This document shows, in pieces, positions 2,627-40,586 of a stretch of DNA of 41,399 nt. Origin of the DNA: an uncultured Victivallales bacterium. Lineage in GTDB: Bacteria > Verrucomicrobiota > Kiritimatiellia > JAQICX01. The stretch's first letter is position 1. Every line of letters begins with the position of its first letter. The notes beneath the pieces are model-generated. The model made no database searches. It saw only the letters and a program-made list of their open reading frames with translations, and was not told the origin of the DNA. Both the position numbers and the translations under genes were made by a program. The stretch covers positions 1 to 41,399 of the forward strand of contig CAYTUX010000069.1 of assembly GCA_964441455.1 (NCBI GenBank), in the 5' to 3' direction.

Positions 2627-2805
2627 AGGTTTCTTTCCATTTGTTTAACCATTTTTCTATTCTTCGCTTCATAAAAACTCCTTTTATTCAATAAATCAAG
2701 GTTAAACCTTTAAAAAAGAAAAACTTGTATTTTTTAGGAGTAAGTTATATCATCTATCGTGTGTAGTTAATGGTTAAGCAACTCCTATTTAGAAAGGAAA
2801 TATCT

Positions 2806-3417
2806 ATGGGAATAACAATACATTACAAAGGTCAGATGGATGACACTAGTATGCTTCCAATGCTGATTGAGGAAATTCAGGATATAGCTGATACAAAAGG
2901 ATGGAAATCAAACATACTTAATGAGGACTGGGGAACCAAACCTAATGCGTCAATAGTTAGCAGAGGTCAGATAGAAGGTGATCTGGGACTCAAGGGTATC
3001 AGTTTCTCACCCGGCGAAGGCTGTGAATCAATGAGTCTCTTTTTCGACAGATATGGGCATGTCATGGATCCGATGACAATGTTGTGTATTATTGATGGAA
3101 CCATAAAGCCTACAGATGCATGTGTACATGTTAAAACACAATTTGCAAACTCAGAGACACATATATGGATTATCAGTATTCTCAAATATCTTAAGAAGGA
3201 ATACATTAGCAACCTTGAAGTTATCGACGAGGGTGGATATTGGGAAACAGGTGATGTTAAAGAGCTTGAAAAAAGAATGAAGTTTCTTGGTGACAAAATC
3301 AATGCCATTGCAAATGCGATTTCCTCTGCCCCAATCACAGATACAGATAAAGAAAAAATGTCTGTCGAGGAAATAGCCTCTAAAATTGAGGATATCATCA
3401 GAAACATGGATTCTTAA
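2806..3417 (+). CDS. Hypothetical protein (203 aa), no recognisable domain
   Basis: Long ORF with AAAGGAAA 8 nt upstream of the ATG at 2806 (the ORF track begins at 2770). The acidic helical C-terminus gives no motif I can name. Confidence 0.6.
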   Translation: MGITIHYKGQMDDTSMLPMLIEEIQDIADTKGWKSNILNEDWGTKPNASIVSRGQIEGDLGLKGISFSPGEGCESMSLFFDRYGHVMDPMTMLCIIDGTIKPTDACVHVKTQFANSETHIWIISILKYLKKEYISNLEVIDEGGYWETGDVKELEKRMKFLGDKINAIANAISSAPITDTDKEKMSVEEIASKIEDIIRNMDS

Positions 3418-3647
3418 TTTTTCGGTTGCAGATAAATATGTGCGTTTTAACCAATAAAATCAGCAAATAAAATCTTAATTCAGTCAGCTTTGGGTTATAT
3501 AAACATAAAAAAGTTGTAAGTACTGTTTTAATTTATATTTAGATAATATTGGCAGAATTACTGTAAAAACACGCTTTGCGAATGGACGCTACACTGCGTT
3601 CCGCTGCTTGACATTCGTCAACCCTCTTACCCTGCGGACGTTTCACC

Positions 3648-3995
3648 TTGGGAAGCCATTTAGTTTTTTATGAAATAAAAATCTTAAACGAAGCTCTTGA
3701 AATTATTAATTGGTATCACCTCCAAATCCACGTAAAGATAATGAGAGCAGCAACCGGAAATGAAAACAATGATATATCCGACAAACAAGATTCAGATGGC
3801 TCTGCAAAAGTGGCACTGATAGGCATAGACCGTTCAATTGCCGCATGGGGTAAACTGCTTTCATATTTTCCGGAGCAGGAAGATGAGTTATTAGACATAC
3901 TAGTGCATTTGGAAAAACTTAGAAGAACAACTGAAAATGAATTTCCTGACGCCCGAGCATTTATACGCCCCGGTTTTGATGATGACCAACAGTGA
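3648..3995 (+). CDS. Hypothetical small helical protein; start uncertain (TTG at 3648 or ATG at 3741), possibly a gene fragment
   Basis: ORF only. No convincing RBS for either start. The first about 35 nt overlap a 28-nt repeat that is also found upstream of ileS, which argues for the later start. Confidence 0.35.
   Translation: MGSHLVFYEIKILNEALEIINWYHLQIHVKIMRAATGNENNDISDKQDSDGSAKVALIGIDRSIAAWGKLLSYFPEQEDELLDILVHLEKLRRTTENEFPDARAFIRPGFDDDQQ
3656..3683. repeat. 28-nt repeat CCATTTAGTTTTTTATGAAATAAAAATC (copy 1)
   Basis: Matches 14921-14948 at 27 of 28 positions. Contains the near-palindrome GTTTTTTAT-GAA-ATAAAAATC. Confidence 0.7.
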
Positions 3996-4035: not shown

Positions 4036-4458
4036 TTAATTGATTCTTGGGAACAAAAAAAGGCCTTGCTTGTATATTTCTTGAAATATTTCTTTAATCG
4101 GTTCAACAGCCTCATTATATTCTACCTGAAAAAAATATATGTATTCAGCATTACTGTTCTTTATGCTTCTGAACCATACAAAACTAATTGCCTTTTGCCA
4201 TCCAACATCCAGGTCAATCACTTCACTTCTACCAATAACCAGTTTTATTTGCTCAAATTTGTCTTCTGTTTTTGAGAGAAAATCGTCTAAATCCATTTCT
4301 GGTTGCTTTATTCTGCTAAAACTTTCGTTACAGTCTAACTTATCAAACCATGCATTCTTACTTGGTATATCCAAGTTGTGTAACCGGTATATAAATTCTT
4401 GATTTGTTTTATAGTCTTCTGTTCCTAAGTTTAGCCAAATCCCATTGTCATATTCCAT
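4036..4458 (-). CDS. Hypothetical protein (140 aa) immediately downstream of the DUF4143 ATPase gene
   Basis: Strong RBS AAGGAGG 8 nt upstream of the ATG at 4458. It lies 41 nt downstream of the ATPase stop on the same strand. No recognisable domain. Confidence 0.6.
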   Translation of the reverse strand: MEYDNGIWLNLGTEDYKTNQEFIYRLHNLDIPSKNAWFDKLDCNESFSRIKQPEMDLDDFLSKTEDKFEQIKLVIGRSEVIDLDVGWQKAISFVWFRSIKNSNAEYIYFFQVEYNEAVEPIKEIFQEIYKQGLFLFPRIN

Positions 4459-4499
4459 AAAACATGCCTCCTTGTGTTGTATTGAAAAACAAAACAACC

Positions 4500-5654
4500 T
4501 TAAACAAAAACGTCCCCTATCTGATTCCATGGAATGATTTTTATTCCATTACGTTGTGTTCGGGCTTCACCACCATAAATAATAGAACTTGAATTCAGTT
4601 TAATACTGTTCTCAACAACTTTGATACCTTTAAAAAAGTCAGAGGAAACAGTTTGTGATGACTTGATTTCCCAAGCCGAAACCTTCGCACCGTTTTCCGC
4701 AAACAAATCGACCTCGACACCATTACTATCTCTATAGAAACATAGCCGATCATTTATGCCTGCATTAGCGTATTGCTTAATTGCCTCGCTAACAACAAAT
4801 GTTTCAAAAATAGCTCCACGTAACGGATGCCCTACTAGATGTTCAGGTTTTTGTAGTCCTAACAAGAAACAGGCCAATCCTGTATCAAGAAAATAAAGTT
4901 TCGGCGTCTTAACCAGACGCTTACCTATATTTGCATGCCATGGTTGAAGAAGCCTGATAATTCCACTTTCCTGAAGAACTGACAACCAGCTTTTTATTGT
5001 ATTATGAGTAATTCCACACTCGTTACCTAGAGAATGCATATTCAACAGCTGTCCGGTACGCCCTGCACATAACTGGAGAAACATTTCAAATCTGTGTAAA
5101 TCAGTAACGGCAAGAATCTGCCTGACATCACGTTCAACATATGTGGAAATGTAGAATGAAAGGGCTTCTGTTGGATTCAAATGCTTATCATGAATTCTTG
5201 GATAAAATCCGGAGTAAAGCATTTCGTTAATTGTTACAGGAGCTGCCTTATGATAAAGTTCATCATAAGAAAAAGGGTACAATCTGGCAATAGCCGTTCG
5301 ACCAGCAAGAGATTGCGACACTGGTTCCATCATCTCAAATTGTCTGGAACCTGTTAAAATAAACACTCCTGTCTGCATTGAAGCATCAACAATAGTCTGA
5401 ATATACGACAACAACTCTGGAACATGCTGTATTTCATCTAAAACAGCACCATCTGGAAACTCATTAAGAAATCCCCGTGGATCTGTTCTTGCATAATTTC
5501 TCTGATCAAGGTCTTCTAAAGACACATAGGGTTTTTCAGGGAAAATAGCACGGCAAAGAGTGGTCTTTCCCGATTGCCTTGGTCCTGTAACAGTTATAAC
5601 CGGATACTGTCCTGCCCATTCTAATATTTTATTTTCTAACTTTCTTTTAATCAT
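4500..5654 (-). CDS. AAA-family ATPase of the COG1373 type with a C-terminal DUF4143-like (predicted PD-(D/E)xK) region
   Basis: Walker A GPRQSGKTT; a Walker B-like VFILTGS/LDEIQ region; C-terminal EVDLF...WEIKSS pattern. The length and order are typical of this family. Confidence 0.85.
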   Translation of the reverse strand: MIKRKLENKILEWAGQYPVITVTGPRQSGKTTLCRAIFPEKPYVSLEDLDQRNYARTDPRGFLNEFPDGAVLDEIQHVPELLSYIQTIVDASMQTGVFILTGSRQFEMMEPVSQSLAGRTAIARLYPFSYDELYHKAAPVTINEMLYSGFYPRIHDKHLNPTEALSFYISTYVERDVRQILAVTDLHRFEMFLQLCAGRTGQLLNMHSLGNECGITHNTIKSWLSVLQESGIIRLLQPWHANIGKRLVKTPKLYFLDTGLACFLLGLQKPEHLVGHPLRGAIFETFVVSEAIKQYANAGINDRLCFYRDSNGVEVDLFAENGAKVSAWEIKSSQTVSSDFFKGIKVVENSIKLNSSSIIYGGEARTQRNGIKIIPWNQIGDVFV

Positions 5655-6108: not shown

Positions 6109-8664
6109 TCATTTTGTCTTATATTCCCCTACCGATTCGGCAGCCATGCTCAATGTTGGTTCTTCGGCTGATTTATCTTCGCCCCAGACTTTGGCAATCC
6201 GGTCTTTTATCTTTTGCTCAAATATTTCTATTAGTTGTTTGTTTGCGTTTACAATTTCTTGTTCTTTTTCTATTTTAGCAACTATTTGTTTTTGTATTTC
6301 AATAGGAGGCAATGGAAATTTTATTTTAATGATAGCATTACCGTTAAATTGCGGTTGACCGCCTCCTGTCATTAACTTAGCCGCTTGACTAATATAATTG
6401 GAACTCTGAGCAAAAGCCCAATAATATTTTGGATATACCCTTTTTTTGTCGAAATTCAGACGAATAAGAAATGAAGCAAAAACGGCCGGATACGATTCTT
6501 TAAAAATCATAGTCTTTCCATATGTTGCCCCTGTTCTTGCAACTAAGATATCATCTTTACTAACTATACTTTTCTGTGCATCTAATGTTAAATCAATATA
6601 TCTAGCATTTTCTTTTATCAATTCGCCATCTACTCCAATATCTGTAATTCTAATAAAACGAGCATTGCCTTCGTCTTTAGCTTTTTCTGTAAATCCATAT
6701 TGTGGTTTTGCAACCTCACCCAACTCGACCATTTCCCAAGCGGGGTCAATGTCTATTTTGGGTTTGTAGTTTTCAACTACCATTTTTGCCCCATCAATTA
6801 TTTTCTGGTAGCCTTCTATTTCAGCTACTATCTCCTCTTGAACCGATAATGGAGGTAGCGGAATTTTAACCCTTTTAACTAACTCAATATTTAAATTCTT
6901 AACTACCCCCCCCGTTGCAGACTGAGCAAATTGGTCTTTAACAAATTGAGAAGAAAGAATATTAAAAACATAATTCTTGTTTAAATTATTTTTGAGTTGT
7001 TTAAAAACTAACCAACCATCATGAATTGCACCAGTAATATTTACAATATAAGGACGTCCAAAACTCATTGAGTTTGAAAGTATGAAATCTCCAGGTTCAA
7101 CTAATCTTGATTTTTTCAAGCCTTCTGGTCTTATTTTTTGTTTAGTTGAATTTACAAACTTAGCCCCCTCTTGAACATCACCAATTTTAATCCAATTTAT
7201 GCCATTGACATCATCCGTTATATAATCTTGAATTGGTCTTGGTGAACCTCCTCGCTTAATATCAAATAATTCATTAAGTGTACACAAATCAAATTCTGTT
7301 TGCCCTAAAATTGTTTCTTTGTACCTCTCGCCGCTCAAATTATAATCGCCATTTTTTGCAATCTTTGATTTCAGTACAGCATGAGCCATTTCGACTTCGC
7401 TCAAAGCCCCTGCTTTAAATTGTTTCAATAAGTCAATTGCTTCTTCCAGCTGTCCACCTTTAATAATATTTCGTTGAGCACCCAGATTGAATCCATCGTT
7501 ATCAACTTTTACAAATAGTATCTCATTACTTGTTTTGGCAAATTGCCTATCCATCAGCAAAATAGAAGTCTTTACTCCACTATATGGATTAAATACTCCG
7601 GCGGGCAAACTCACTACGGCATACAGATGATTCTCAACCAGCATTTTACGAAGTTCTTTGTAGGATTTACCACTTTGGAAAATTACTCCCTCGGGAACAA
7701 TTATACCTGCTCTACCGGTTGGATTAAGATGTTCGGCAATGTAGTCAACAAACAAAACCTCTGAACGATTTGACTTTACTGTAAATTGTGAGTGAGGTCG
7801 AATCCCCCCTTTTGGACTCATAAATGGAGGGTTGGCAAGGATAACATCAAACCTGTCATCCCAACGATCTTCACTTGATAAAGAATCATATTCATAGATA
7901 TGCGGAGATGTGAACCCATGCAGATATAAATTGACCAGACTCATACGAACCATATCGGGAGATATATCATAGCCGATAATGTTTTTTATCAGCTTCTTTC
8001 TCTCATCAGGAGTCAGGTTGTTGTTTTTCTCTTTGATATGTTTAAAGGCAGATATAAGAAAACCGGCTGTTCCACATGCTGGATCAAGTATTGTATCCGA
8101 TTTATCCGGATCTACAGCTTTGACAAGAAAATCTATTATGTGTCGTGGAGTTCTGAATTGCCCGGCATCGCCTTGTGAACCCATGATAGAAAGCAGATAT
8201 TCAAATGCATCTCCAAGTTTTTCACTATGGGTGTATTCAAACCTTCCAATCTCTTTTAGAAACATTCGGAGCGTTTCCGGATCGCGATATGGCAGATATG
8301 CATTTTTAAAGATATCTCTGAACAGTTGAGGTATGTTAGGATTTTTCTCCATATTCTCTATGGCTTCAGAATACAATCGGAGCAGGTCATTTGCTGAGAC
8401 CTGTGGACTCGTAAGGTTATCCCAGCTATATTTTTCAAATTCAACAGTTATCTCTTCTTCAGGATTGGCTGGATCTTTGATTTTGTAATCTGAGAAAAAC
8501 TTTGCTTTTCCGCCAAGTTCAATGGATTCTTTATCCATATCATCCATAAATTTATATATCAATGCAATTGTAATCTGCTCAATCTGCGATTTCGGATCCG
8601 GCAACTTCCCTACTAAGATATCCCGGCAATCATCTATTCTTCTCTTTGTCTGTGTATCTAACAT
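6109..8664 (-). CDS. hsdM: Type I restriction-modification fused methyltransferase-specificity subunit (HsdM N-terminal about 480 aa plus HsdS with two target-recognition domains)
   Basis: N6-adenine MTase motifs DPACGTAGFL (motif I) and LANPPFMS (motif IV). These are followed by two TRD-plus-conserved-helix units: LPPLSVQEEIVAEIEGYQKII and LPPIEIQKQIVAKIEKEQEIV. AGGA RBS precedes the ATG at 8664 (the ORF track extends to 8712). Confidence 0.85.
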   Translation of the reverse strand: MLDTQTKRRIDDCRDILVGKLPDPKSQIEQITIALIYKFMDDMDKESIELGGKAKFFSDYKIKDPANPEEEITVEFEKYSWDNLTSPQVSANDLLRLYSEAIENMEKNPNIPQLFRDIFKNAYLPYRDPETLRMFLKEIGRFEYTHSEKLGDAFEYLLSIMGSQGDAGQFRTPRHIIDFLVKAVDPDKSDTILDPACGTAGFLISAFKHIKEKNNNLTPDERKKLIKNIIGYDISPDMVRMSLVNLYLHGFTSPHIYEYDSLSSEDRWDDRFDVILANPPFMSPKGGIRPHSQFTVKSNRSEVLFVDYIAEHLNPTGRAGIIVPEGVIFQSGKSYKELRKMLVENHLYAVVSLPAGVFNPYSGVKTSILLMDRQFAKTSNEILFVKVDNDGFNLGAQRNIIKGGQLEEAIDLLKQFKAGALSEVEMAHAVLKSKIAKNGDYNLSGERYKETILGQTEFDLCTLNELFDIKRGGSPRPIQDYITDDVNGINWIKIGDVQEGAKFVNSTKQKIRPEGLKKSRLVEPGDFILSNSMSFGRPYIVNITGAIHDGWLVFKQLKNNLNKNYVFNILSSQFVKDQFAQSATGGVVKNLNIELVKRVKIPLPPLSVQEEIVAEIEGYQKIIDGAKMVVENYKPKIDIDPAWEMVELGEVAKPQYGFTEKAKDEGNARFIRITDIGVDGELIKENARYIDLTLDAQKSIVSKDDILVARTGATYGKTMIFKESYPAVFASFLIRLNFDKKRVYPKYYWAFAQSSNYISQAAKLMTGGGQPQFNGNAIIKIKFPLPPIEIQKQIVAKIEKEQEIVNANKQLIEIFEQKIKDRIAKVWGEDKSAEEPTLSMAAESVGEYKTK

Positions 8665-8734
8665 AAATTCCTTTGTTATTATTGCATGATGCAATGTAAT
8701 AAAACGCAACATTTTTTATTTTACAAATATATAA

Positions 8735-8770
8735 GACGCAAAGCATTGAGACGCAAAGCATTGCGTCTCT
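8735..8770. repeat. REP-like palindrome GAGACGCAAAGCATTGCGTCTC preceded by a tandem half copy
   Basis: AGACGCAAAGCATTG half copy followed by the full palindrome at 8748-8769. Same sequence family as 9064-9087 and 9249-9270. Confidence 0.8.
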
Positions 8771-8802
8771 ATGGATTATTTCAAAAAAAAACGTATTACG
8801 GT

Positions 8803-9402
8803 TTATTTAAAAAATTTGTCTTTATTCCAATTTTGTTGATTCTCATTAATATATTTTCTGATATTTTCAAATGATTTATCATTGCGGATTATATGATCGT
8901 GAAAACGGGGTTGCCAGGCAAAATCGGCACGGATTTGACGGGCATTTTTGGTAACACCAATTTTAAACCCACGAATAATGGATGCCAGATTTTTTGATTG
9001 CCCCCCAAATTGATTTATATGATCATTGGTCGTCGCCGCGGTCGTCGTCGCGGTCGTCATCGTAGAGACGCAATGCTTTGCGTCTCTTTTATTATATTCA
9101 TTTTCACCAATTATGACAATGGCATGAAAATGATTTGGCATTATTACATATTCATCCATCATTAAATTCATATCTGGTCGCATTTCAAATGTTTTTAACC
9201 ATTCGGTTTTCACGATTTCCCCAATGGCTGACAATTTCATTTTATATGGAGACGCAAAGCATTGCGTCTCTACGATTTGTCCAAAATAACATACCCTGTT
9301 TTTGGTGCAAATGGTAACAAAATATGTGGCATTCCAACCATAATCCCAATTTTGCAATCGGGTGGATGAAATACGGTATTTGTTTTGAAATTTATCTAAC
9401 AT
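8803..9402 (-). CDS. IS200/IS605-type Y1 (HUH) transposase homolog of the REP-associated (RAYT-like) kind
   Basis: HUH motif MPNHFHAIV and C-terminal WQPRFHDHIIRNDKSFENIRKYINEN. Size 199 aa. Two palindromic REP-like units and a Thr/Ala-rich run lie in-frame. Confidence 0.8.
   Translation of the reverse strand: MLDKFQNKYRISSTRLQNWDYGWNATYFVTICTKNRVCYFGQIVETQCFASPYKMKLSAIGEIVKTEWLKTFEMRPDMNLMMDEYVIMPNHFHAIVIIGENEYNKRDAKHCVSTMTTATTTAATTNDHINQFGGQSKNLASIIRGFKIGVTKNARQIRADFAWQPRFHDHIIRNDKSFENIRKYINENQQNWNKDKFFK
9064..9087. repeat. REP-like palindrome AGAGACGCAATGCTTTGCGTCTCT inside the RAYT-like ORF
   Basis: Stem of 9-10 bp. Translates in-frame as RDAKHCVST. Confidence 0.8.
9249..9270. repeat. 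REP-like palindrome GAGACGCAAAGCATTGCGTCTC inside the RAYT-like ORF
   Basis: Identical to the copy at 8748-8769. Translates in-frame as ETQCFASP. Confidence 0.8.
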
Positions 9403-9439: not shown

Positions 9440-11965
9440 TTAAGCGGCAAACCGCTCTAAATTGATATAATCTTTAATGTAAACAGGAATGACTTCTCTG
9501 TATTTTGCAGCAACTGCTTTGAATTGCGAATTGGTAAGCGTTGGATTTGTATGTAATGACTGAAAATCTTTTGCTTCAATTATTTTTCTTAATTCCTTAT
9601 CCACAATATAAGCCTTAAAGAAATATTTTAAAGCCCTGGTATTGACATCTTCATCCGGCGGATAAATTGAGATAAATTTCTCAAATTCTTCTTCAAGAAG
9701 TTCATCTTTAGATTTGAATTTAGGAATTATACCAAAAATCTTTTCAACCACTTCTCGAATAGATGTTTTTCTGTCAATCTTTGCAGCCTTTCTAAGTTTC
9801 TCCAGAGTAAAATATTCTTCAGGCTTATTGAATATCTCATCTTGTATATAAGTTGTCACATATTCCCAGTTATCCAGCTGCACATTTTTCTTAATAACAT
9901 CATCCATAACAATTCTATCTTTAAACTTAAAGAGCATCTGATCAACTTTCATTCCATCGTAGCCGACCTCCTGCTCTGCAACCATTACAACCGGATCCGG
10001 TTTGATGCTTGTGAACTGGTTTGTACCTTTGGGTTCACCAGGCTTTCCTGTTCCTGTAGTAGGTTTAGGCAATTCAAGTTTCTCATCATAATCAAAAGTT
10101 TCTTCAAAATATTCACAATTTGCAAAAAAATCAAAAAGTTTATACGACTCTTTATTGTGTGTAATGATTTCATCATCACCTAATTGATCTTTATGTTTAA
10201 ATTGAAAAGTATGTTTTCTTGTTCCACGACCTTTTATCTGCACAAAGTCTGCCGGACTATAAATTGGTCTTGCCATACATAAATTAAGTAAGTCCGGACA
10301 ATCATATCCAGTGGTCATCATCCCGACAGTTACACAAACTCTTGTCTTGCTTGAAACATATCCTTCAAGCCATGTTGTCTTGCCATTCAATTTGTTATTT
10401 GAAAAATTTATAGTCATCTGCTGAGAATCATCAACCTGTGAAGTAACCTGAACTGCAAAGTCTGAGTTGTATCTGCCGGGATATAGCTCTTCTGCAAATT
10501 CATTTAAGACTTCTGCTAGCCTTCTGGCATGATTCTGACTGACAGCAAAAAAGATTGTCTTTCCAATCTCATTTGTAATAGGATCTCTAAATGCATTTTC
10601 CATAAATATTTTACATAAACTACGATTTGTCTCGTCTGAAAAGAATGTTTTTTCAAAACTACGAGGCATAAATGTGCTTTTTTCTTCACCCTCTTCTGTG
10701 TCGAAAACAATGGAATATCCTTTATCTGACAAAAGTTGAGTTGTGATTTCAGTTCTCACATCAACAACTGTTGGGTTAATCAGGAATCCATCCTTTACTC
10801 CATCAATCAAAGAGTATTGATAGGTTGGTTCGCCTCCTTCACAACCAAAAGTATTATAGGTGTCACGCAACATTCTCCGTTCAACTTCTCGCGGATCATT
10901 CTCTTTGACTTTCGAGAATTCAACACCTTTCAGATAATCTTTAGGAGTCGCTGTTAAGCCTAATTTATAACCATTAAAGTATTCAAATACTGCACGAGCA
11001 TTTCCTGATATTGATCTATGTGCTTCATCTGAAATAATTAAATCAAAGTCTGTTGGAGAAAAAAGATAGCTATACTTGTTATCAAAACTTAGTGATTGAA
11101 CTGTGGTTACTATGATATCCGCATTATGCCAATCTGTTCTATGCTCCTTGTATATAGATGTTGTGTAGTCAGGTCTTAAATAGTTGTTGAACGCTTTCCA
11201 TGCTTGATTTTCCAACTCTAATCTATCCACCAAAAACAACACACGTCTGGCATTTTGAGTTCGCAGAAACAGACGAATAATAGCGGCGGCTGTTAAAGTT
11301 TTACCCGTTCCTGTCGCCATTTCAAACAGAAAACGATCTTTATCATCGGCAACAGCTTTCTGAACTGCAAGAATGGCTGTTTTTTGATAGTTTCTTAGAA
11401 AACGCAGTCCATTATCAAAAATAAAATCATTACTAGAATCTATCGTACCGTTCCAGCCGGGCATCTCTTTGTAGTCAGGCATTTGTACTTTAACAATATA
11501 ATCATCATCAACGGGTTCCTTGACTAAAGCTTCTCGGTCAGGATTCCACTCTTTGATTGCACCAATCTCAGCTGCATTTGGAAATTTGTAAATTGGTTTG
11601 GGATTCCCCTTCTTCAAATTCCACAAAAAGTGAACAACTCCATTCGAAAGAATGACAAATTGAGCATTCACTGTTTTTGCATATTTTCTGGCTTGCTCTT
11701 TGGCAACCAATGGATGTAATTTCTCCTTTTTGGCTTCCAGAACACAAATAGGTTTATTATTGCTATCAACTAATAAGAAGTCCAATGAACCAGATTTTGT
11801 TTTTTCAAAATCATTTCCCCATGCATCAGCCTCAGTTTGAGTAATCTTAACATGATTCTCAAGCAATATATTTGCTTTCCCGTGTTCATCATCAAAAAAA
11901 CGCCAACCGGCTTCTTCAAGCAGTTTGTTAATCTTTATCCGGGCATGTGCTTCGTTATCTGACAT
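9440..11965 (-). CDS. hsdR: Type I restriction enzyme R subunit (SF2 DEAD/DEAH helicase-nuclease, EcoEI-like C-terminal region)
   Basis: N-terminal ARIKINKLLEEAGW nuclease-type region; Walker A ATGTGKT; DEAH box IISDEAHRS; later helicase motifs (QIKGRGTR). 841 aa. Confidence 0.9.
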   Translation of the reverse strand: MSDNEAHARIKINKLLEEAGWRFFDDEHGKANILLENHVKITQTEADAWGNDFEKTKSGSLDFLLVDSNNKPICVLEAKKEKLHPLVAKEQARKYAKTVNAQFVILSNGVVHFLWNLKKGNPKPIYKFPNAAEIGAIKEWNPDREALVKEPVDDDYIVKVQMPDYKEMPGWNGTIDSSNDFIFDNGLRFLRNYQKTAILAVQKAVADDKDRFLFEMATGTGKTLTAAAIIRLFLRTQNARRVLFLVDRLELENQAWKAFNNYLRPDYTTSIYKEHRTDWHNADIIVTTVQSLSFDNKYSYLFSPTDFDLIISDEAHRSISGNARAVFEYFNGYKLGLTATPKDYLKGVEFSKVKENDPREVERRMLRDTYNTFGCEGGEPTYQYSLIDGVKDGFLINPTVVDVRTEITTQLLSDKGYSIVFDTEEGEEKSTFMPRSFEKTFFSDETNRSLCKIFMENAFRDPITNEIGKTIFFAVSQNHARRLAEVLNEFAEELYPGRYNSDFAVQVTSQVDDSQQMTINFSNNKLNGKTTWLEGYVSSKTRVCVTVGMMTTGYDCPDLLNLCMARPIYSPADFVQIKGRGTRKHTFQFKHKDQLGDDEIITHNKESYKLFDFFANCEYFEETFDYDEKLELPKPTTGTGKPGEPKGTNQFTSIKPDPVVMVAEQEVGYDGMKVDQMLFKFKDRIVMDDVIKKNVQLDNWEYVTTYIQDEIFNKPEEYFTLEKLRKAAKIDRKTSIREVVEKIFGIIPKFKSKDELLEEEFEKFISIYPPDEDVNTRALKYFFKAYIVDKELRKIIEAKDFQSLHTNPTLTNSQFKAVAAKYREVIPVYIKDYINLERFAA

Positions 11966-26917: not shown

Positions 26918-26953
26918 ACAGCTTCTTTTTTTACCCTTTCCCCTTCTTACCAT

Positions 26954-26977
26954 GCGTCTGGCGTCATGAGTCATGCG
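26954..26977. repeat. GCGTCTGGCGTCATGAGTCATGCG unit (inverted partner at 29897-29918)
   Basis: Its reverse complement matches 29897-29918 over 22 nt. Confidence 0.7.
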
Positions 26978-29896: not shown

Positions 29897-29918
29897 CGCA
29901 TGACTCATGACGCCAGAC
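29897..29918. repeat. CGCATGACTCATGACGCCAGAC unit (inverted partner of 26954-26977)
   Basis: 22-nt reverse-complement match. Confidence 0.7.
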
Positions 29919-29966
29919 ACATGACAAACCAAGATGCCGATGGTAGCATCGGTGCTCCAAAAATTA

Positions 29967-33078: not shown

Positions 33079-33199
33079 TTAATTTACTCCATAAAATCAA
33101 TAAATCTTTTCTTAAAATATGTAAACAGAGTATATTATAAAAAAATAGAAACTTTTGCAAGAATCTTGTCCCCTTTTCAAAAATTTTCCCTGTTTTTCT

Positions 33200-33505
33200 G
33201 GTTCTTCGTCATTTATTGTGGGTATCTTATTAAATCCCGCAGGGATGTCATCTTAGTAGCCATGGGTTTTAACCCATGGTAGAGACATCAAAGCAATATG
33301 AACCCCATAGGGGTGGCACCTGAGTTAAGAAATTAAGATGTCATCCCTACAGGATTCTATGTTTTGGGTTATTATATACCTCTAGGTTAAAACCTAGGGC
33401 TACCCGGATGTCGCCCCAGCTACTAAATATTTTGTTTTTATTCAACATAAAAATGTTTTGTTGTTTAGTAGCTGGGCTTTTACCCACAATAATTGCTGAA
33501 GAACC
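33200..33505. mobile_element. MITE-like 306-bp element E2 (homolog of E1)
   Basis: Left end is GGTTCTTCGTCATTTATTGTGGGTA. The reverse complement of the right end is GGTTCTTCAGCAATTATTGTGGGTA. Interior hairpins align with E1 and carry compensatory changes. Confidence 0.65.
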
Positions 33506-33542
33506 ATATAATTTGATTAATAAATAAATAAAGGAATAAATA

Positions 33543-35232: not shown

Positions 35233-35267
35233 GCGACAACTTCGACAGCGGCGACAACAACGATAGC
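35233..35267. repeat. Solo TCGAC/CGACA-rich unit resembling the left arm of the 37445-38384 cassette
   Basis: CTTCGACAGCGGCGACAACAACGATAGC against TTTCGACAGCGTCGACAACAACATCGAC (about 24 of 27 positions). Starts 2 nt after the GH2 stop. Confidence 0.55.
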
Positions 35268-35361: not shown

Positions 35362-36447
35362 ATGGCAAAGAAAAAAGCAATAAAGATCGGGATTCTTGGA
35401 CTGGGCAGAGCCGGTTGGGGAATGCACTGTAATGAACTGACAGGCAGAGAAGAAAAGTTTGAAATTGTTGCAGGCTGTGACCTTTTGAAGCCTTTTAGAG
35501 ACAGATTTCAGGAAAAGTATCCGGATGCTAAGGTATATAAAGATTATGAAGAAATGCTCGCTGACGAAGATATTGAGATGATATCTGTTGCATCACGAAC
35601 TCCGGAGCATGTTGAGCATGCAATAATGGCAATGAAGGCAGGAAAAATTGTTTTTCAGGAAAAACCAATTGCTGTAGATTATAAAGAGGCTCAAAAGCTT
35701 GTAAAAGCCCGAGAAAAATATGATGCTCAACTATACATAAGGCATAATCGCAGGTTCGAACCGATGTTCCAGCATATAAAAGAGATTATTGCATCAGGTA
35801 ATCTTGGCGACGTTTATGAAGTTAAATTAAGACGCAATGGGTATTCAAGACGTGACGATTGGCAGACAATTATTGAGTGTGGCGGCGGGCAGCTTTTAAA
35901 TTGGGGACCACATATTGTGGATCATGCGCTACGTTTCCTTGATTGTCCCGTCGCAGAAATGTGGAGTGATTTGAAAAAAATTGCTGCTGCAGGTGATGCA
36001 GAAGACCATTTGAAAATTGTTTTAAAAGGTGAGAACAGTAGAGTTGTTGACCTTGAAATTAGTGGTGGGTCAGCAATTTCAGAACCGGAATATATAGTTT
36101 CCGGAACAAAAGGTGGTTTGTCAGCCGGTGGTAATGAAATTAAAATGAAATATTTGAGTCCTAAAAAAGAGCTCACCAAAAGAGTTGCTAAGAAAAAGAC
36201 ACTTATTGATGGTGGTTTTGGCACACAGGATGATTTAAAGTGGGTTGAAAAAACAGTTGAAGTCAACCCTAAGAAGAAAATGGATACAGCTTCTATTTGG
36301 GATTATCTATATGCTTCTGTAAGAAATGGGAAAGAATTTCCTATTACACTAGAAGAGTCTTTAGAGGTTATGAGAGTCATTTCTGAGACAAGAAAGGACA
36401 CCATATTCAATACATATAACGAAAAAAGGAGGAAAAAGAAGAAATAA
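35362..36447 (+). CDS. Gfo/Idh/MocA-family oxidoreductase
   Basis: Rossmann motif IGILGLGRAG and EKP motif FQEKPIA. 361 aa with a Lys-rich tail. Confidence 0.85.
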   Translation: MAKKKAIKIGILGLGRAGWGMHCNELTGREEKFEIVAGCDLLKPFRDRFQEKYPDAKVYKDYEEMLADEDIEMISVASRTPEHVEHAIMAMKAGKIVFQEKPIAVDYKEAQKLVKAREKYDAQLYIRHNRRFEPMFQHIKEIIASGNLGDVYEVKLRRNGYSRRDDWQTIIECGGGQLLNWGPHIVDHALRFLDCPVAEMWSDLKKIAAAGDAEDHLKIVLKGENSRVVDLEISGGSAISEPEYIVSGTKGGLSAGGNEIKMKYLSPKKELTKRVAKKKTLIDGGFGTQDDLKWVEKTVEVNPKKKMDTASIWDYLYASVRNGKEFPITLEESLEVMRVISETRKDTIFNTYNEKRRKKKK

Positions 36448-36657
36448 TTATTTATAATCTATATTTGGTAATTACCTGATATATAGTAAGTTAAATGAAT
36501 AATATAATGTGCTTTACTAAAAAATGTAAAAAAATAATAAAAAATCTTGACGATTTTTAATAAAAACTTTATAGTATCGCCACATATTATATGGAATAAT
36601 AGACAAAAATATTTATATATTATTGTAACTAACATAAACATTGAAGAAAGGTGTCAA

Positions 36658-37368
36658 ATGAATAAGACTCCAAATAAAAGTTGGAAACAAGGTTTTACGC
36701 TTGTTGAGTTGCTGGTTGTTATCGCTATTATCGGTATTCTTGCTGGTATGTTGTTCCCTGCAATACAAGGTGCAATTACTAAAGCAAATGCTACATCGAC
36801 AGGTAATAATGGCAGTCAGGTATGGAAAGCACTGTATTCGGACAACTTAGAGAGAGATCAAGTCGGTGATGCAACAATCTGGCCGGAAGATGGTGGCGAA
36901 ATTGATGTTGGTACAGGTGGTTCTGAAGATTTACAAACATATGATACTTCTACAGAATATTTTAAGCTTTGTAGTGAATCTGGTGTTTTTTCCGGTATTT
37001 CTCCTTCAATTCTTTCTGCTTCAGGTTTGCCTTCTGCTACTTCTTGGTCAAATGAAACTGGTAGAGTTGAATTTAAGGATCAACACAATGCATGGTGTGT
37101 TGTAATTCCTAATACATCTGCATCATTCTCACCAGAAACTCCATTGTTCTTTACTAGAAACTTTACCGGTGGAGGCACTATTGATGCAATTGATGGTTTT
37201 GCCCAAGAAGAAAAACCTTTTGGTGACAAGATGGGGGTTGTTATCACTTTTGGTGGTTCAGTTAGAATTATCACAGATAAGCAAGCTTCAAGAGATATGC
37301 AAAAATACTTCAATCCATTGAATGAGAATTATGAATTTTTAACTCCTGGTACTGATTCAGGCGACTAA
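36658..37368 (+). CDS. Prepilin-type N-terminal cleavage/methylation domain protein (type II secretion/pseudopilin-like)
   Basis: KQGFTLVELLVVIAIIGILAGMLFPAI signature. The ATG at 36658 has a GAAAGG RBS. The ORF-track extension to 36547 is AT-rich leader. Confidence 0.85.
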   Translation: MNKTPNKSWKQGFTLVELLVVIAIIGILAGMLFPAIQGAITKANATSTGNNGSQVWKALYSDNLERDQVGDATIWPEDGGEIDVGTGGSEDLQTYDTSTEYFKLCSESGVFSGISPSILSASGLPSATSWSNETGRVEFKDQHNAWCVVIPNTSASFSPETPLFFTRNFTGGGTIDAIDGFAQEEKPFGDKMGVVITFGGSVRIITDKQASRDMQKYFNPLNENYEFLTPGTDSGD

Positions 37369-37396
37369 GGTATTAAAATAGTTTAGCTTTATAAAA

Positions 37397-37429
37397 ATGG
37401 GGTAGTTTTTAACTGCTCCATTTTTTTTT
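37397..37429 (+). terminator. Rho-independent terminator after the pilin-like gene
   Basis: Stem ATGGGGTAG/CTGCTCCAT (9 bp including 2 G-U), loop TTTTTAA, then a 9-nt T-run. Confidence 0.6.
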
Positions 37430-37444
37430 GGTAAAGAGGGGAGT

Positions 37445-38384
37445 ATTCGTTTTTTTTGTTTTTCGACAGCGTCGACAACAACATCGACAACGTCGACAGC
37501 AGAGAAAACCGAGGGTGTTAACAGCATCGAAGTTTGAAGCTGAAAAGGAATATTTATGGATATAGTTGAGAAATATGGTGGCTATAGAAAACTTGATTCA
37601 TTCACGTTGGTAACAATTATTCAGTTAGGTACTTGGAAGTTTTGTAGTAAGTTTCTTAATTACCAAAATGACCCTAAAGGCAGACAGTTTGATCAAATGA
37701 CTCAAGCTGCTCGTTCAGGTCGAGCAAACATTATTGAGGGATCGGAGCGGGCAGGCACTTCAAAGACGACAGAGATTAGGTTGACTGATGTTGCTCGTGC
37801 AAGTTTGGCAGAACTCAAAGGTGATTATGAATTTTGGTTACTTAGCAATTATTTTGTTCCATGGCACAATTCTTGTGTAGATGCTCGAGAAGTATATGCT
37901 GTAAGTTTTGACAAAAGTCCTCCAGGTGTAAGTGATGGACTACATGAGTCGGGTGCATACTTGTTAGACCAATTTTCAAAATTTTCTAATTGGCTTGATA
38001 GCGATGATGCGAATGTAGTTGCAAACACCATGATAATTTTATTGAATAGGGCGTTGAACATGTTAAATCGTCAACTTGAAGCACAAAGTAACAGCTTTAA
38101 AAAAGATGGTGGATTTCATGAACGTGCAGGAACAATTCGTCGTCAGGAAAGAGAAAGACAAAATCCAAATGAGGTCGTTCCTAAATGTCCTGAATGTGGC
38201 AAGTTAATGTGTATACGAATTGCCAAGAGTAGTAAAAATGAAGGAGTGTCATTTTGGGGATGTACAGGATTTCCAGAGTGCAAGGCAACAAAAAAGTTTA
38301 AGAGTTAGTCCAAACACAGCTGTCGAAATGCTGTCGGTGTTGTCGATGCTGTCGCAAGGTTGTCGAAAAAAGAAGAAACGAATC
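37445..38384 (+). mobile_element. 940-bp cassette: four-helix-bundle/Zn-ribbon gene bracketed by imperfect inverted repeats (left arm 37445-37500, right arm 38319-38384)
   Basis: Left arm: ATTCGTTTTTTTTGTTTTTCGACAGCGTCGACAACAACATCGACAACGTCGACAGC. Reverse complement of the right arm: GATTCGTTTCTTCTTTTTTCGACAACCTTGCGACAGCATCGACAACACCGACAGCATTTCGACAGC. Shared blocks are ATTCGTTT, TTTTTCGACA, CATCGACAAC and CGACAGC. Confidence 0.5.
37556..38308 (+). CDS. Four-helix-bundle protein (23S rRNA-IVS protein/Avd family, with suffix-type extension) fused to a topoisomerase-type C4 zinc ribbon
   Basis: YRKLDSF...DQMTQAARSGRANIIEGSERAGTSKTTEIRLTDVARASLAELKGDYEFWL matches the four-helix-bundle family pattern. 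C-terminal CPECGKLMCIRIAKSSKNEGVSFWGCTGFPECKATKKF is a C4 zinc ribbon. AAGGAA RBS. Confidence 0.8.
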   Translation: MDIVEKYGGYRKLDSFTLVTIIQLGTWKFCSKFLNYQNDPKGRQFDQMTQAARSGRANIIEGSERAGTSKTTEIRLTDVARASLAELKGDYEFWLLSNYFVPWHNSCVDAREVYAVSFDKSPPGVSDGLHESGAYLLDQFSKFSNWLDSDDANVVANTMIILLNRALNMLNRQLEAQSNSFKKDGGFHERAGTIRRQERERQNPNEVVPKCPECGKLMCIRIAKSSKNEGVSFWGCTGFPECKATKKFKS

Positions 38385-40586
38385 ATGAAGATAGCAAAAG
38401 TAGTTGTTACAATTTCATTGGATAAAGAGTTTGATTATCTTATTCCTGATCAGATTGCAGACAAAGTTTTTGTCGGCTCCAGAGTGAAAGTGCCCTTTGG
38501 TCGCAGAGAAATTGATGGCTATGTTGTATCCATTGGTATTTTAAAAGAAACACCAAAATTTCAGTTGAAAGAGATTACGAGACTAACAGATGATAGACCA
38601 TTTGTTTCAGAAAAAATTTTAGAGTTAGCAAGGTGGATAGCATCATATTACTGTTCAACAGTTGAGCAGGCAATTAGAGCTGTTCTCCCAGGAGCAATAC
38701 GAAAGCATTCAGTTAAACAGAAAAAAAAGCTTTTTGTATCATATATTGATGATTCAGAACTTCCGGATAAAATTTCAGCAAAGCATCAGCTTATTATTGA
38801 TTATGTCAAAAAATCCGGTGGAATGTTTCAAGTTGACCTGCTTGAAAAATTAGATATAACAGTTTCACCTATTAAAACACTTGAGAAAAAGAGAATTCTT
38901 AAGATTGAACCTAAGGCAGATCGTAGAGATCCGTTGCTCAACAGAAACTACATAGAGACCAAACCTTTAGATTTAATGGATTCCCAGCAGAATGCATTGG
39001 ATATACTTTGTGAACAGATTGATCATAATAATCCAAAGCCGCTATTAATTTACGGAGTAACAGGAAGCGGGAAAACAGAAGTATATCTTCAGGCTATTTC
39101 CCATGCTCTTGAAAGAGGTAAGGGGGCAATAGTTTTGGTTCCTGAGATTTCGCTCACACCTCAGACGGTTGAAAGATTTGTCTCGCGGTTCGGAAAAAGA
39201 ATTGCTGTTCTGCATAGTCATCTGTCAGATGGAGAGCGGTTTGACGAGTGGCATCGAATTCATAAAGGTGATGCGGATATAGTTGTCGGTGCCAGATCTG
39301 CCATCTTTGCACCTGTTAAAAATCTTGGATTGATAGTTGTAGATGAAGAGCACGAGCCAAGTTACAAGCAGGAAGAGGCACCAAGGTATAATGCCAGAGA
39401 TGTTGCAGTAATGCGAGGTAAGATGGAAAGGGCTGCTGTTTGTCTGGGGTCTGCTACTCCGGCTTTAGAGTCTTGGTGGAATGCAAAGAATGATAAATAT
39501 TTTATGGCAATATTGCCCGAACGAGCTGATTCAAAAAAGATGCCTCATATTGATGTTGTAGACTTGAAAATTGAGGCAAAAGAACCTGGTCAGAAAACTG
39601 TTTTTTCACGCAGATTAATTGATGCTATGGGTGATCGTCTTAGAAAAAGTGAACAGACTATTTTATTTTTGAATCGTAGAGGCTTTTCAACTTCGTTGAC
39701 TTGTCCGAATTGTGGTTATGTGTCGGAGTGTAATGATTGCAGTATAACACATACCTATCATAGAGCAACCGATGAACTGATATGTCATATATGCGGCAAT
39801 GTGAAAAAAGTGCCGTTACACTGTCCCGCATGTGATGCTCCGGACTTTAAATATGCAGGAATTGGAACACAACGTATTGAAGACATTGTTCATAAAATCT
39901 TTCCAAAAGCAAGAATTCAAAGAATGGATGCAGATGTGACCAGAAAGAAAACTGCCTATGAAGATATATTGGGCAGATTTAAGGCCGGTGATATAGATAT
40001 ATTAATTGGAACGCAGATGATTGCAAAAGGACTGCATTTTCCAAGAGTCACATTAGTTGGTGTTATTTATGCTGACCAGAGCTTGAACATACCGGATTTC
40101 AGGTCAGGAGAACGTACATATCAATTACTTTCCCAGGTCGCAGGTCGTGCGGGTAGGGGGGCAATATCAGGCGATGTTTTTATTCAGACTTTTAATCCTT
40201 TTCATCCCGCAATCCAGATGGCAAGGCATACCGATTTTAATGGATTTTGTGATCAGGAGATAGAATTTAGAAGAGAATTGCTCTATCCTCCATTTTCCAG
40301 GATTATTTGTGTGACTTTTAAAGGTTTGTCAGAAAGTATGGTATCATTTTGCACGACCGCATTTGCAGACAAATTGTTAAAAGCTTTTAACTGTGAGCAT
40401 GTTATGATATCAGACCCAATTCCATCGCCTTTGTCAAAAGCAAAGGGAATGTATAGATATCAGGTGATGATAAGGGCAACCAAGGATTTTTCATTGATAA
40501 AAAAGAGTATGTTAGATATTTTAAGTGAATTTGATTTAAAGGACATTGATTGCATTATAGATGTTGATGCATTATCAATTCGATAG
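38385..40586 (+). CDS. priA: Primosomal protein N' (replication restart helicase PriA)
   Basis: MKIAKVVVTISLDKEFDYLIP N-terminus; Walker A GVTGSGKTEVY; DEEH box VVDEEHE; Cys-rich Zn region CPNCGY...CSITHTYH...CHICG...CPAC. The start is set at 38385 because the ORF-track 5' extension overlaps the previous gene and the right arm. Confidence 0.95.
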   Translation: MKIAKVVVTISLDKEFDYLIPDQIADKVFVGSRVKVPFGRREIDGYVVSIGILKETPKFQLKEITRLTDDRPFVSEKILELARWIASYYCSTVEQAIRAVLPGAIRKHSVKQKKKLFVSYIDDSELPDKISAKHQLIIDYVKKSGGMFQVDLLEKLDITVSPIKTLEKKRILKIEPKADRRDPLLNRNYIETKPLDLMDSQQNALDILCEQIDHNNPKPLLIYGVTGSGKTEVYLQAISHALERGKGAIVLVPEISLTPQTVERFVSRFGKRIAVLHSHLSDGERFDEWHRIHKGDADIVVGARSAIFAPVKNLGLIVVDEEHEPSYKQEEAPRYNARDVAVMRGKMERAAVCLGSATPALESWWNAKNDKYFMAILPERADSKKMPHIDVVDLKIEAKEPGQKTVFSRRLIDAMGDRLRKSEQTILFLNRRGFSTSLTCPNCGYVSECNDCSITHTYHRATDELICHICGNVKKVPLHCPACDAPDFKYAGIGTQRIEDIVHKIFPKARIQRMDADVTRKKTAYEDILGRFKAGDIDILIGTQMIAKGLHFPRVTLVGVIYADQSLNIPDFRSGERTYQLLSQVAGRAGRGAISGDVFIQTFNPFHPAIQMARHTDFNGFCDQEIEFRRELLYPPFSRIICVTFKGLSESMVSFCTTAFADKLLKAFNCEHVMISDPIPSPLSKAKGMYRYQVMIRATKDFSLIKKSMLDILSEFDLKDIDCIIDVDALSIR

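Follow-up and report, generated by a model that had tools for sequence, protein, structure and literature searches.

We describe a small genetic element in a 41,399-nt stretch of DNA from an uncultured Victivallales bacterium (GenBank assembly GCA_964441455.1, contig CAYTUX010000069.1, positions 1 to 41,399; this whole stretch is referred to below as the window). The element, here called the cassette, lies between a pilin-like gene and priA and consists of one gene for a four-helix-bundle protein with a zinc ribbon, bracketed by oppositely oriented arrays of a short motif. Related cassettes recur at many other loci, and the unit appears to be exchanged horizontally. The features of the locus are as follows.

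37393-37429, forward strand: intrinsic terminator of the upstream pilin-like gene (15-bp stem and T-run; hairpin 37393-37425, T-run ending at 37429)
37445-37462, forward strand: T-rich outer segment of the left arm, ATTCGTTTTTTTTGTTTT, 83% complementary over 18 nt to 38366-38383
37463-37500, forward strand: forward motif array, four copies of TCGACAR(C) starting at 37463, 37472, 37484 and 37493 (spacing 9, 12 and 9 nt)
37501-37555, forward strand: spacer with the ribosome binding site (RBS) AAAGGA (37544-37549), 6 nt before the ATG
37556-38308, forward strand: cassette gene (250 amino acids), the sole open reading frame (ORF) between the arms
38183-38302, forward strand: zinc-ribbon coding region (CPECG...FWGCTGFPEC), with a profile match and invariant cysteines
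38319-38366, reverse strand: reverse motif array, five copies of CGACA, seen as TGTCG on the forward strand at 38321, 38332, 38341, 38350 and 38361 (spacing 11, 9, 9 and 11 nt)
38367-38384, forward strand: A-rich tail AAAAAGAAGAAACGAATC, adjoining the priA ATG and pairing with the T-rich left end
38385-40586, forward strand: priA, the downstream host gene, outside the cassette (matches to PriA_3primeBD, DEAD, Zn_ribbon_PriA and PriA_C)
35233-35265, forward strand: gene-less solo forward array, GCGACAAC TTCGACAGC GGCGACAAC AACGATAGC, immediately following the stop codon of a GH2 gene

The two arms (37445-37500 and 38319-38383) are imperfect reverse complements, with 46 Watson-Crick, 5 G.U, 3 A.C and 1 other pairing among the 57 alignment columns. 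Their local alignment score of 51 exceeded those of all 500 dinucleotide-preserving shuffles (15.4 ± 2.5, maximum 31) and of 388 control pairs taken from the window at the same spacing (maximum 22). When joined by a short linker, the arms were predicted to fold at -63.4 kcal/mol (z = -9.9), and their pairing was also predicted within the full 971-nt transcript (z = -4.4). The left arm reads ATTCGTTTTTTTTGTTTTT, followed by TCGACAGCG TCGACAACAACA TCGACAACG TCGACAGC, and the right arm reads GCTGTCGAAAT GCTGTCGGTG TTGTCGATGC TGTCGCAAGG TTGTCG, followed by AAAAAAGAAGAAACGAAT. Both are arrays of a single 8-nt motif, TCGACARC, with four forward copies upstream of the gene and five reverse copies downstream, and it is mainly this opposite orientation of shared units that makes the arms complementary. 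Within the 41-kb window, 7 of the 15 TCGACAR sites fall within the roughly 100 nt of the arms.

A first-pass annotation of this DNA had described the arms as reverse complements with several shared blocks, enclosing a single gene with its own RBS; all of these blocks are present and derive from the repeated motif. It had likewise correctly placed the left arm 16 nt past the T-run of the pilin terminator and the end of the right arm, at 38383/4, directly before the priA ATG. Its statement that priA lacks its own leader needs a small correction. In the close relative L094, in which the site is empty, the same hairpin and T-run stand directly before the priA leader, and the insertion site is natively bounded on its left by the pilin terminator. 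The T-rich segment of the left arm (37445-37462) is absent from this empty site. The native L094 leader, GGAAATTCAAAAAAAGAACAAC-ATG (AAAAAAAGAACAAC-ATG), is similar to the A-rich sequence at the outer end of the right arm, AAAAAAGAAGAAACGAATC-ATG, and the last ~19 nt before priA are therefore probably native leader and not cassette. We take the cassette copy to extend from 37445 to 38366, comprising the forward array, the RBS, one gene and the reverse array.

Homologues of the cassette protein allowed a survey of this arrangement across the family. Eighty loci were taken from species-representative genomes, which hold at least 524 relatives, together with a few metagenome loci, and 82 loci were analyzed; an array was defined as at least three units and a flank as the 350 nt next to the gene. 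The arms recur at other loci of the family, with at least one array in the flanks of 72 of the 82 genes. Array density was 3.0 per kb near the gene and 0.069 per kb in the rest of the same loci, an enrichment of ~44-fold, and was 0.11 per kb in control loci (587 kb), so that arrays without the gene are rare in both. Upstream flanks were forward-only in 30 cases, forward-then-reverse in 25, reverse-only in 4 and reverse-then-forward in 3, while downstream flanks were reverse-only in 24, forward-then-reverse in 17, forward-only in 7 and reverse-then-forward in 2. The outer upstream array was therefore forward in 55 of 62 flanks and the outer downstream array reverse in 42 of 51. The window copy, forward upstream and reverse downstream, shows the simplest and commonest form. 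Many relatives carry an extra inner array, reverse or forward, that creates a hairpin-like forward-and-reverse pair in each flank.

The unit of these arrays has an invariant core and variable spacers, and its period of 9 to 10 nt is kept across hosts of very different GC content. Of 313 steps between units of the TTGAC class, 304 were exactly 9 nt long, and of 97 in the CGAC class, 59 were 10 nt long. Most arrays hold 3 to 7 units, and occasionally far more. Each protein clade has its own core motif: TCGAC in the clade of the window protein, ATCGA/CTCGAG/CGATA in a second and TTGAC in the largest. The motif tracks the neighbor-joining tree of the protein and not the host, as all classes were found within Kiritimatiellia and again within Lentisphaerae. 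Protein clades cut across host classes and phyla, where some taxon labels of metagenome-assembled genomes may reflect binning errors.

The arrays abut the stop and start codons of neighboring genes, which belong to 70 different Pfam families upstream (62 neighbors) and 43 downstream (60 neighbors). These include tRNA synthetases, gyrB, PFK, RF-1, NusB and sulfatases, with no common function. Type I restriction genes were modestly enriched, with hsdS upstream in 5 of 62 cases and hsdR-like genes downstream in ~7 of 60. Many cassettes of the TTGAC class (L023, L028, L029, L034, L039, L043, L055, L064, L067 and L075) are squeezed between an ORF ending in ...AF(S/T)GEL*, which we read as the C terminus of hsdS, and the start of hsdR (MNEAETRAEHIDPALK...), and their arrays abut both genes. 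Such a placement could reflect either a function or merely a permissive landing site with conserved flanks.

Three close relatives (L094, L167 and L009), found through metagenome loci containing priA, show the cassette in different states. In L094, whose PriA, GFO and pilin proteins are 92%, 87% and 70% identical to those of the window, the pilin-priA site is empty and priA follows the terminator after 22 nt. This same genome holds a different cassette, with a protein only 65% identical, between GH2 and GFO, exactly where the window has the solo array 35233-35265. In L167 (PriA 95% identical), cassettes occupy both the pilin-priA and the GH2-GFO sites; the window has the solo array at the latter and the cassette at the former, and the sister strain L009 has unrelated sequence between GH2 and GFO, with neither array nor cassette. 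Within this narrow lineage, two intergenic sites were thus each found both with and without a cassette. Derivation of the solo array from the second cassette by simple deletion was considered and rejected, as the ends of the homology do not fit a clean deletion.

The cassettes are also far younger than their flanks. Between the window and L009, a single difference was found in the 829 nt of the ORF and right array, compared with divergences of 6.8% for GFO, 13.6% for the pilin gene and 6.9% for priA; at the rate of priA, ~57 differences would be expected over this length. Likewise, the window and L167 cassettes are 94.7% identical between flanks of 83 to 88% identity, and the second cassettes of L167 and L094 are 97.1% identical between flanks of 84 to 87%. 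As the window and L167 copies differ at 24 synonymous and 14 nonsynonymous codon positions, synonymous sites do vary, and the identity of the cassettes results from recency rather than constraint. Array copy number is dynamic as well. L167 carries 12.6 copies of a 24-nt double unit, CGACAGCGTCGACAGCAGAGAAGA, upstream of its gene (3612-3916), which gene callers mistook for a 132-amino-acid ORF, and seven copies of ATGCTGTCG downstream (4728-4794). The first-pass annotation had proposed a discrete cassette that might be mobile, and the empty site that this idea predicts exists in L094. Taken together, the recurrence at unrelated loci, the empty, solo and occupied states and the low divergence of the cassette point to a horizontally exchanged single-gene unit, which evolves and is exchanged on its own.

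A mechanism of movement was sought in several ways. No target-site duplication was detected outside the outermost arrays, where the longest shared word averaged 5.0 nt, compared with 4.6 nt in shuffled pairings (32 loci), and no conserved cleavage motif was found there. One candidate duplication, AAAAAAAAG on both sides of the L167 cassette, is probably A-rich leader. The cassette protein has no transposase domain and no Y1_Tnp match in profile searches, and no transposase or recombinase was found near the cassette or in the listed neighbor families. The array lengths vary between copies, unlike those of defined transposon ends, and only one solo array is present in the 41 kb of the window. 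A search of 36000-39500 against Rfam, including rRNA, returned no match beyond chance level. Because the four-helix-bundle family includes Avd, the accessory protein of diversity-generating retroelements (DGRs), a link to these systems had also been considered. It found no support: reverse transcriptase domains were absent from window ORFs of at least 100 amino acids and from the 25 most frequent neighbor families (62 upstream and 60 downstream neighbors), and neither set held a template repeat/variable repeat (TR/VR) pair. As no reverse transcriptase or DGR is nearby, the name Avd applies only as that of a fold relative.

The cassette protein was assigned by the first pass to the four-helix-bundle family of Avd and the 23S rRNA intervening sequence (IVS) proteins, fused to a C4 zinc ribbon. 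A structural model and structure searches agree with a bundle of this IVS or S23p kind, the ribbon profile identifies the Top1 type, and the two family profiles for the bundle give divided results. Helices of the bundle were placed at residues 14-33, 43-64, 70-97 and 152-184. TIGR04258, the four-helix-bundle suffix domain, matched residues 153-199 at the C-terminal end of the bundle with 51.4 bits (cutoff 40). TIGR02436 (four helix bundle protein) scored 25.7 bits (cutoff 24), and PF05635 (23S_rRNA_IVP) scored 25.2 bits, which is under its cutoff of 33.8; both cover only residues ~44-98. The ribbon (residues 210-249) matched the Top1-type family PF01396 with 35.4 bits (cutoff 32). Among 25 homologues, 62 positions are invariant, including C211, C214, C236 and C242 of the ribbon. 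An AlphaFold2 (AF2) monomer model based on these homologues (mean predicted local distance difference test score [pLDDT] 83.5) shows a three-stranded zinc ribbon and, besides the four long helices, a fifth one. Its top Foldseek matches in the PDB were Xcc0516 (2gsc; probability 1.00, target TM score 0.64) and BT_0352 (2rld), the latter described as "S23 ribosomal protein family," and both entries were deposited with five chains. In profile comparisons, the ribbon matched that of Topo III-alpha, and 2gsc was the sole four-helix-bundle match. This ribbon type is common to topoisomerases, NEIL3-GRF, NERD proteins and restriction endonucleases, and is a nucleic acid-binding module, and the protein as a whole appears to be built for nucleic acid binding. 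S23p of Xanthomonas (Xcc0516) forms a toroid of five identical subunits (PMC4990558, citing Lin 2006). Avd has been described as a positively charged barrel of five subunits, "similar to S23 ribosomal proteins," and its ligand is an RNA stem-loop (bioRxiv 10.1101/2023.10.23.563531).

Altogether, 2279 proteins matched at an E value of ≤1e-3. The top 120 are full-length, 52 to 66% identical and named from Kiritimatiellia, Lentisphaerae and Verrucomicrobia; homologues are labeled "four helix bundle suffix domain-containing protein" in their source. Some annotated homologues are 280 to 290 amino acids long (P0027, 289 amino acids, L006 4751-4870; L014/L015), which results from read-through of the ORF into the downstream array, and this extra C-terminal length is no real additional domain. 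Carriers were sought in several collections. The protein matched none of the PADLOC defense models (0 families at E ≤ 0.1) and gave only a weak zinc-ribbon match in PHROGs, and its 40 matches in viral contigs were all confined to the zinc ribbon. Plasmids held no full-length family member and a single distant protein with the suffix domain, which lacks the zinc ribbon. This four-helix-bundle protein, encoded on Prevotella nigrescens replicon NZ_CP082843.1 (L211 3130-3200), is 31% identical, and its gene is followed by inverted copies of another short motif, TAGGAA/TTCCTA. Such arrays may therefore be more widespread in the four-helix-bundle superfamily.

The anatomy of the cassette, its recurrence across the family and its presence/absence polymorphism are solid observations. 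As for the arrays, their invariant core, free spacers, spacing of about one helical turn and clade-dependent motif argue for a sequence-specific oligomeric binder rather than for selection on base pairing, and the obvious candidate for this reader is the protein that the cassette itself encodes. The reading we prefer, to which we would give about even chances, is that an oligomer of the cassette protein binds the arrays on both sides of its own gene. The protein would assemble into a ring, probably a pentamer as in the solved relatives, and this ring, with one zinc ribbon per subunit, would bind the motif copies spaced at 9 to 10 nt that bracket its gene, each protein clade reading its own motif. 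Within this model, DNA is somewhat favored over RNA as the bound nucleic acid. Binding, most likely on DNA, could set the expression of the cassette gene and insulate the cassette from read-through of the host operon; alternatively, it could mark the cassette ends for a recombination that moves or replaces the cassette. The identity of the reader, its oligomeric state, the choice of DNA over RNA and the consequence of binding are all inferred.

Several observations weigh against this reading and against a dedicated route of exchange. Motif and protein are co-inherited, and shared descent alone could produce the match between motif and clade. The residues that discriminate the motif classes are not clustered in the zinc ribbon, and most lie in a variable insert (residues 98-151), although this mapping is confounded by phylogeny. 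Arrays of 3 to 7 units, and sometimes far more, do not suggest a count fixed at five, and in 10 of the 82 loci arrays were undetectable. In addition, a long-range RNA stem is predicted for the window copy. As for movement, the tract that is nearly identical between the window and L009 (37540-38389) stops before the left array, which differs at two positions, and this has the look of an ordinary conversion tract. No recombinase, target-site duplication, phage or plasmid vehicle accounts for the movement, and gain and loss could result from ordinary homologous recombination and deletion. We consider it distinctly unlikely that the cassettes represent a new class of autonomous selfish elements, in which the ring protein would join the end arrays and promote insertion, replacement or retention of its own gene without a canonical transposase or recombinase, and of which the S23p ORFs of IVSs would be reduced members. 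If this were true, host recombination or replication restart factors would be recruited, for instance, and the spread of IVSs would be explained.

The first-pass annotation also suggested an RNA-processed stem that would couple or uncouple the expression of priA. Here, the arrays in read-through transcripts would pair into a long stem or local hairpins and be cut by RNase III; cleavage would free or destabilize the cassette mRNA and set the 5' end and expression of priA, and the protein might bind the hairpins as Avd binds its stem-loop (bioRxiv 10.1101/2023.10.23.563531). This would mirror the 23S rRNA IVSs with S23p ORFs, which are excised by RNase III. The Coxiella IVS is an RNase III substrate, and immediately before its S23p ORF lie GACAGAT heptamer repeats that vary in copy number (PMC4990558); these resemble the GACAG-containing units of the cassettes. 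Furthermore, since no sigma-70-like promoter was detected in a scan of 37300-38450, cotranscription of the cassette with its neighbors is plausible. For the window copy, the predicted folds described above leave such a stem possible. However, pairing is not what the family conserves. Over 60 arm alignments, the wobble bias expected on the coding strand is absent (97 G.U pairs versus 118 A.C and 268 other mismatches). The spacers that would face each other in a hairpin agree at 4.35 to 4.62 of 8 positions, versus 4.22 to 4.37 in permuted order, which is a tiny collinear excess. The folding energies of the flanks on the two strands (78 loci) favored the forward strand upstream and the reverse strand downstream, a result that is uninformative and probably due to base composition. 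The core and its strict period are conserved across GC-divergent hosts, and pairing alone needs neither; many copies have a forward-and-reverse pair in each flank in place of a single long stem; and the locus itself has no Rfam match. We therefore regard the RNA module as unlikely.

Two further explanations leave the protein and its arrays in other roles. The protein might be a resident, nonmobile regulator, such as a transcription factor or a nucleoid-type protein, that acts through operator arrays and is passed on vertically with occasional loss by deletion, in which case the varied contexts would be old rearrangements and the arrays would regulate neighbors such as priA and hsdR. This agrees with arrays that adjoin the stop and start codons of neighbors, with the enrichment of type I restriction-modification (R-M) genes and with the failure to find a mobility enzyme or target duplication. 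It is nevertheless improbable, as two sites are both occupied and empty within a lineage of 92 to 95% PriA identity, whose two cassettes share only 65% identity, as the cassette is from several-fold to ~50-fold less diverged than the adjacent genes, and as protein clades span host classes and phyla and the neighbors share no function. Alternatively, the protein could be mere cargo and the arrays the ends or recombination sites of an enzyme encoded elsewhere, such as an HUH/Y1 transposase, a tyrosine recombinase or an integron-type integrase. The hairpin-like pair on each side of many copies recalls the ends of IS200/IS605-type elements, and a Y1 gene like those of the repetitive extragenic palindrome (REP)-associated tyrosine transposases (RAYTs), with palindromes of its own, lies inside a type I R-M operon of the same window, so such enzymes do exist in this genome. 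This explanation seems very improbable to us, because the cargo never varies beyond this single protein family, the motif can be predicted from the clade of the protein, the RAYT palindrome GAGACGCAAAGCATTGCGTCTC is unrelated to the arrays, gene-less arrays are rare, and neither a conserved cleavage motif nor a target duplication was found.

Among known systems, the ORF-bearing IVSs of 23S rRNA are the closest, and the cassette is best called a variant of the IVS-type four-helix-bundle ORF element. Both have a protein of the same fold class encoded by one ORF between inverted arms that can pair. IVSs (Leptospira, Coxiella, Brucella and Haemophilus) are likewise sporadic, which is attributed to horizontal transfer, and that of Coxiella carries a varying number of short tandem repeats (GACAGAT) ahead of its ORF (PMC4990558). 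The window copy has terminal inverted repeats that can pair around the ORF, as IVSs do; across the family this pairing is a by-product of the inverted arrays. The cassette lies between a pilin-like gene and priA and not in helix 9, 25 or 45 of 23S rRNA, its protein has twice the length and carries both a suffix domain and a zinc ribbon, and its arms are clade-specific motif arrays with a strict 9- to 10-nt period. Avd belongs to the same four-helix-bundle superfamily and also forms a pentameric basic barrel, in its case one that binds structured RNA (bioRxiv 10.1101/2023.10.23.563531), but it has neither zinc ribbon nor suffix domain, and the cassette lacks a reverse transcriptase or TR/VR pair in the window and among the listed neighbors of 80 family loci. 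RAYT/REP systems share the single gene flanked by inverted short repeats, the clade specificity of the repeat and the possibility of solo repeats. In contrast to these, the cassette protein has no HUH/Y1 domain, and the repeats form periodic arrays instead of single palindromes and are not dispersed (0.07 to 0.11 arrays per kb away from the gene).

The ParR-parC system of plasmid R1 and the omega protein of pSM19035 are examples in which small repressors cooperatively bind arrays of iterons or heptads. Such operators, with 3 to 10 short motifs spaced at about one helical turn, in direct and inverted orientation, beside the gene of their binder, are our favored functional analogy for the arrays. 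Their binders are ribbon-helix-helix dimers on plasmids, however, whereas the cassette encodes a four-helix bundle with a zinc ribbon, has arrays on both sides of its gene and moves as a unit between chromosomal sites. Integron gene cassettes are likewise promoterless single ORFs with an imperfect palindromic site, whose neighbors stay expressed, but no integrase or attI site is present here, the cassettes are solitary at many unrelated intergenic sites, the repeats stand on both sides and the cargo family is constant. The cassette is thus none of a DGR, an insertion sequence, an integron cassette or a PADLOC defense system. The protein family is already catalogued (TIGR04258), while no description of these cassettes was found in the literature on the family, its Pfam and TIGRFAM names or IVS-like cassettes, and we found no earlier description of the cassette organization.

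Other elements were observed elsewhere in the window. The RAYT-like ORF (8726-9402, reverse strand, 199 amino acids) has the look of an REP-associated or IS200-like Y1 transposase, with the motif MPNHFHAIV and a weak match to PF01797 (17 bits), and lies between hsdR (9440-11965) and an hsdM/S fusion gene (6109-8712). Its 22-nt palindrome, GAGACGCAAAGCATTGCGTCTC, occurs just downstream (8748-8771) and twice in frame within the ORF (9063-9086 and 9249-9276). From its position, another kind of selfish gene here takes up the R-M operon slot that in other genomes is used by four-helix-bundle cassettes. Near the same R-M genes, which it adjoins, lies a gene for an AAA_14 and DUF4143 ATPase (4503-5654, reverse strand), and two ORFs nearby (2770-3414 and 4039-4530) have no Pfam matches; together these may form a small defense island. 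Two copies of ~300 nt resembling miniature inverted-repeat transposable elements (2320-2626 and 33194-33511) share terminal inverted repeats (GGYTCTTCG..ATTATTGTGGGTA) and have nested internal palindromes. Finally, a 27-nt inverted repeat, CATGCGTCTGGCGTCATGAGTCATGCG (26951-26977 and 29897-29923), with arms 96% complementary and 2.9 kb apart, brackets a block of scpB, scpA and a tRNA synthetase gene.

Four-helix-bundle proteins of the S23p/IVS kind are very common in bacteria, and structures have been available since 2006. To our knowledge, those outside the Avd proteins of DGRs have no known function or ligand, nor is a mechanism known by which IVSs spread. The family described here offers a concrete candidate ligand in its clade-specific motif arrays, with their fixed spacing beside the gene, and the natural occupied, empty and solo-array alleles of close relatives make the questions of ligand and spread approachable. 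The cassettes are widespread in the Planctomycetes-Verrucomicrobia-Chlamydiae group, in which they come and go between housekeeping genes. Because they are found ahead of essential genes, among them priA, gyrB and those for tRNA synthetases, as well as within type I restriction operons, the cassettes may shape how these genes are expressed across much of this group.

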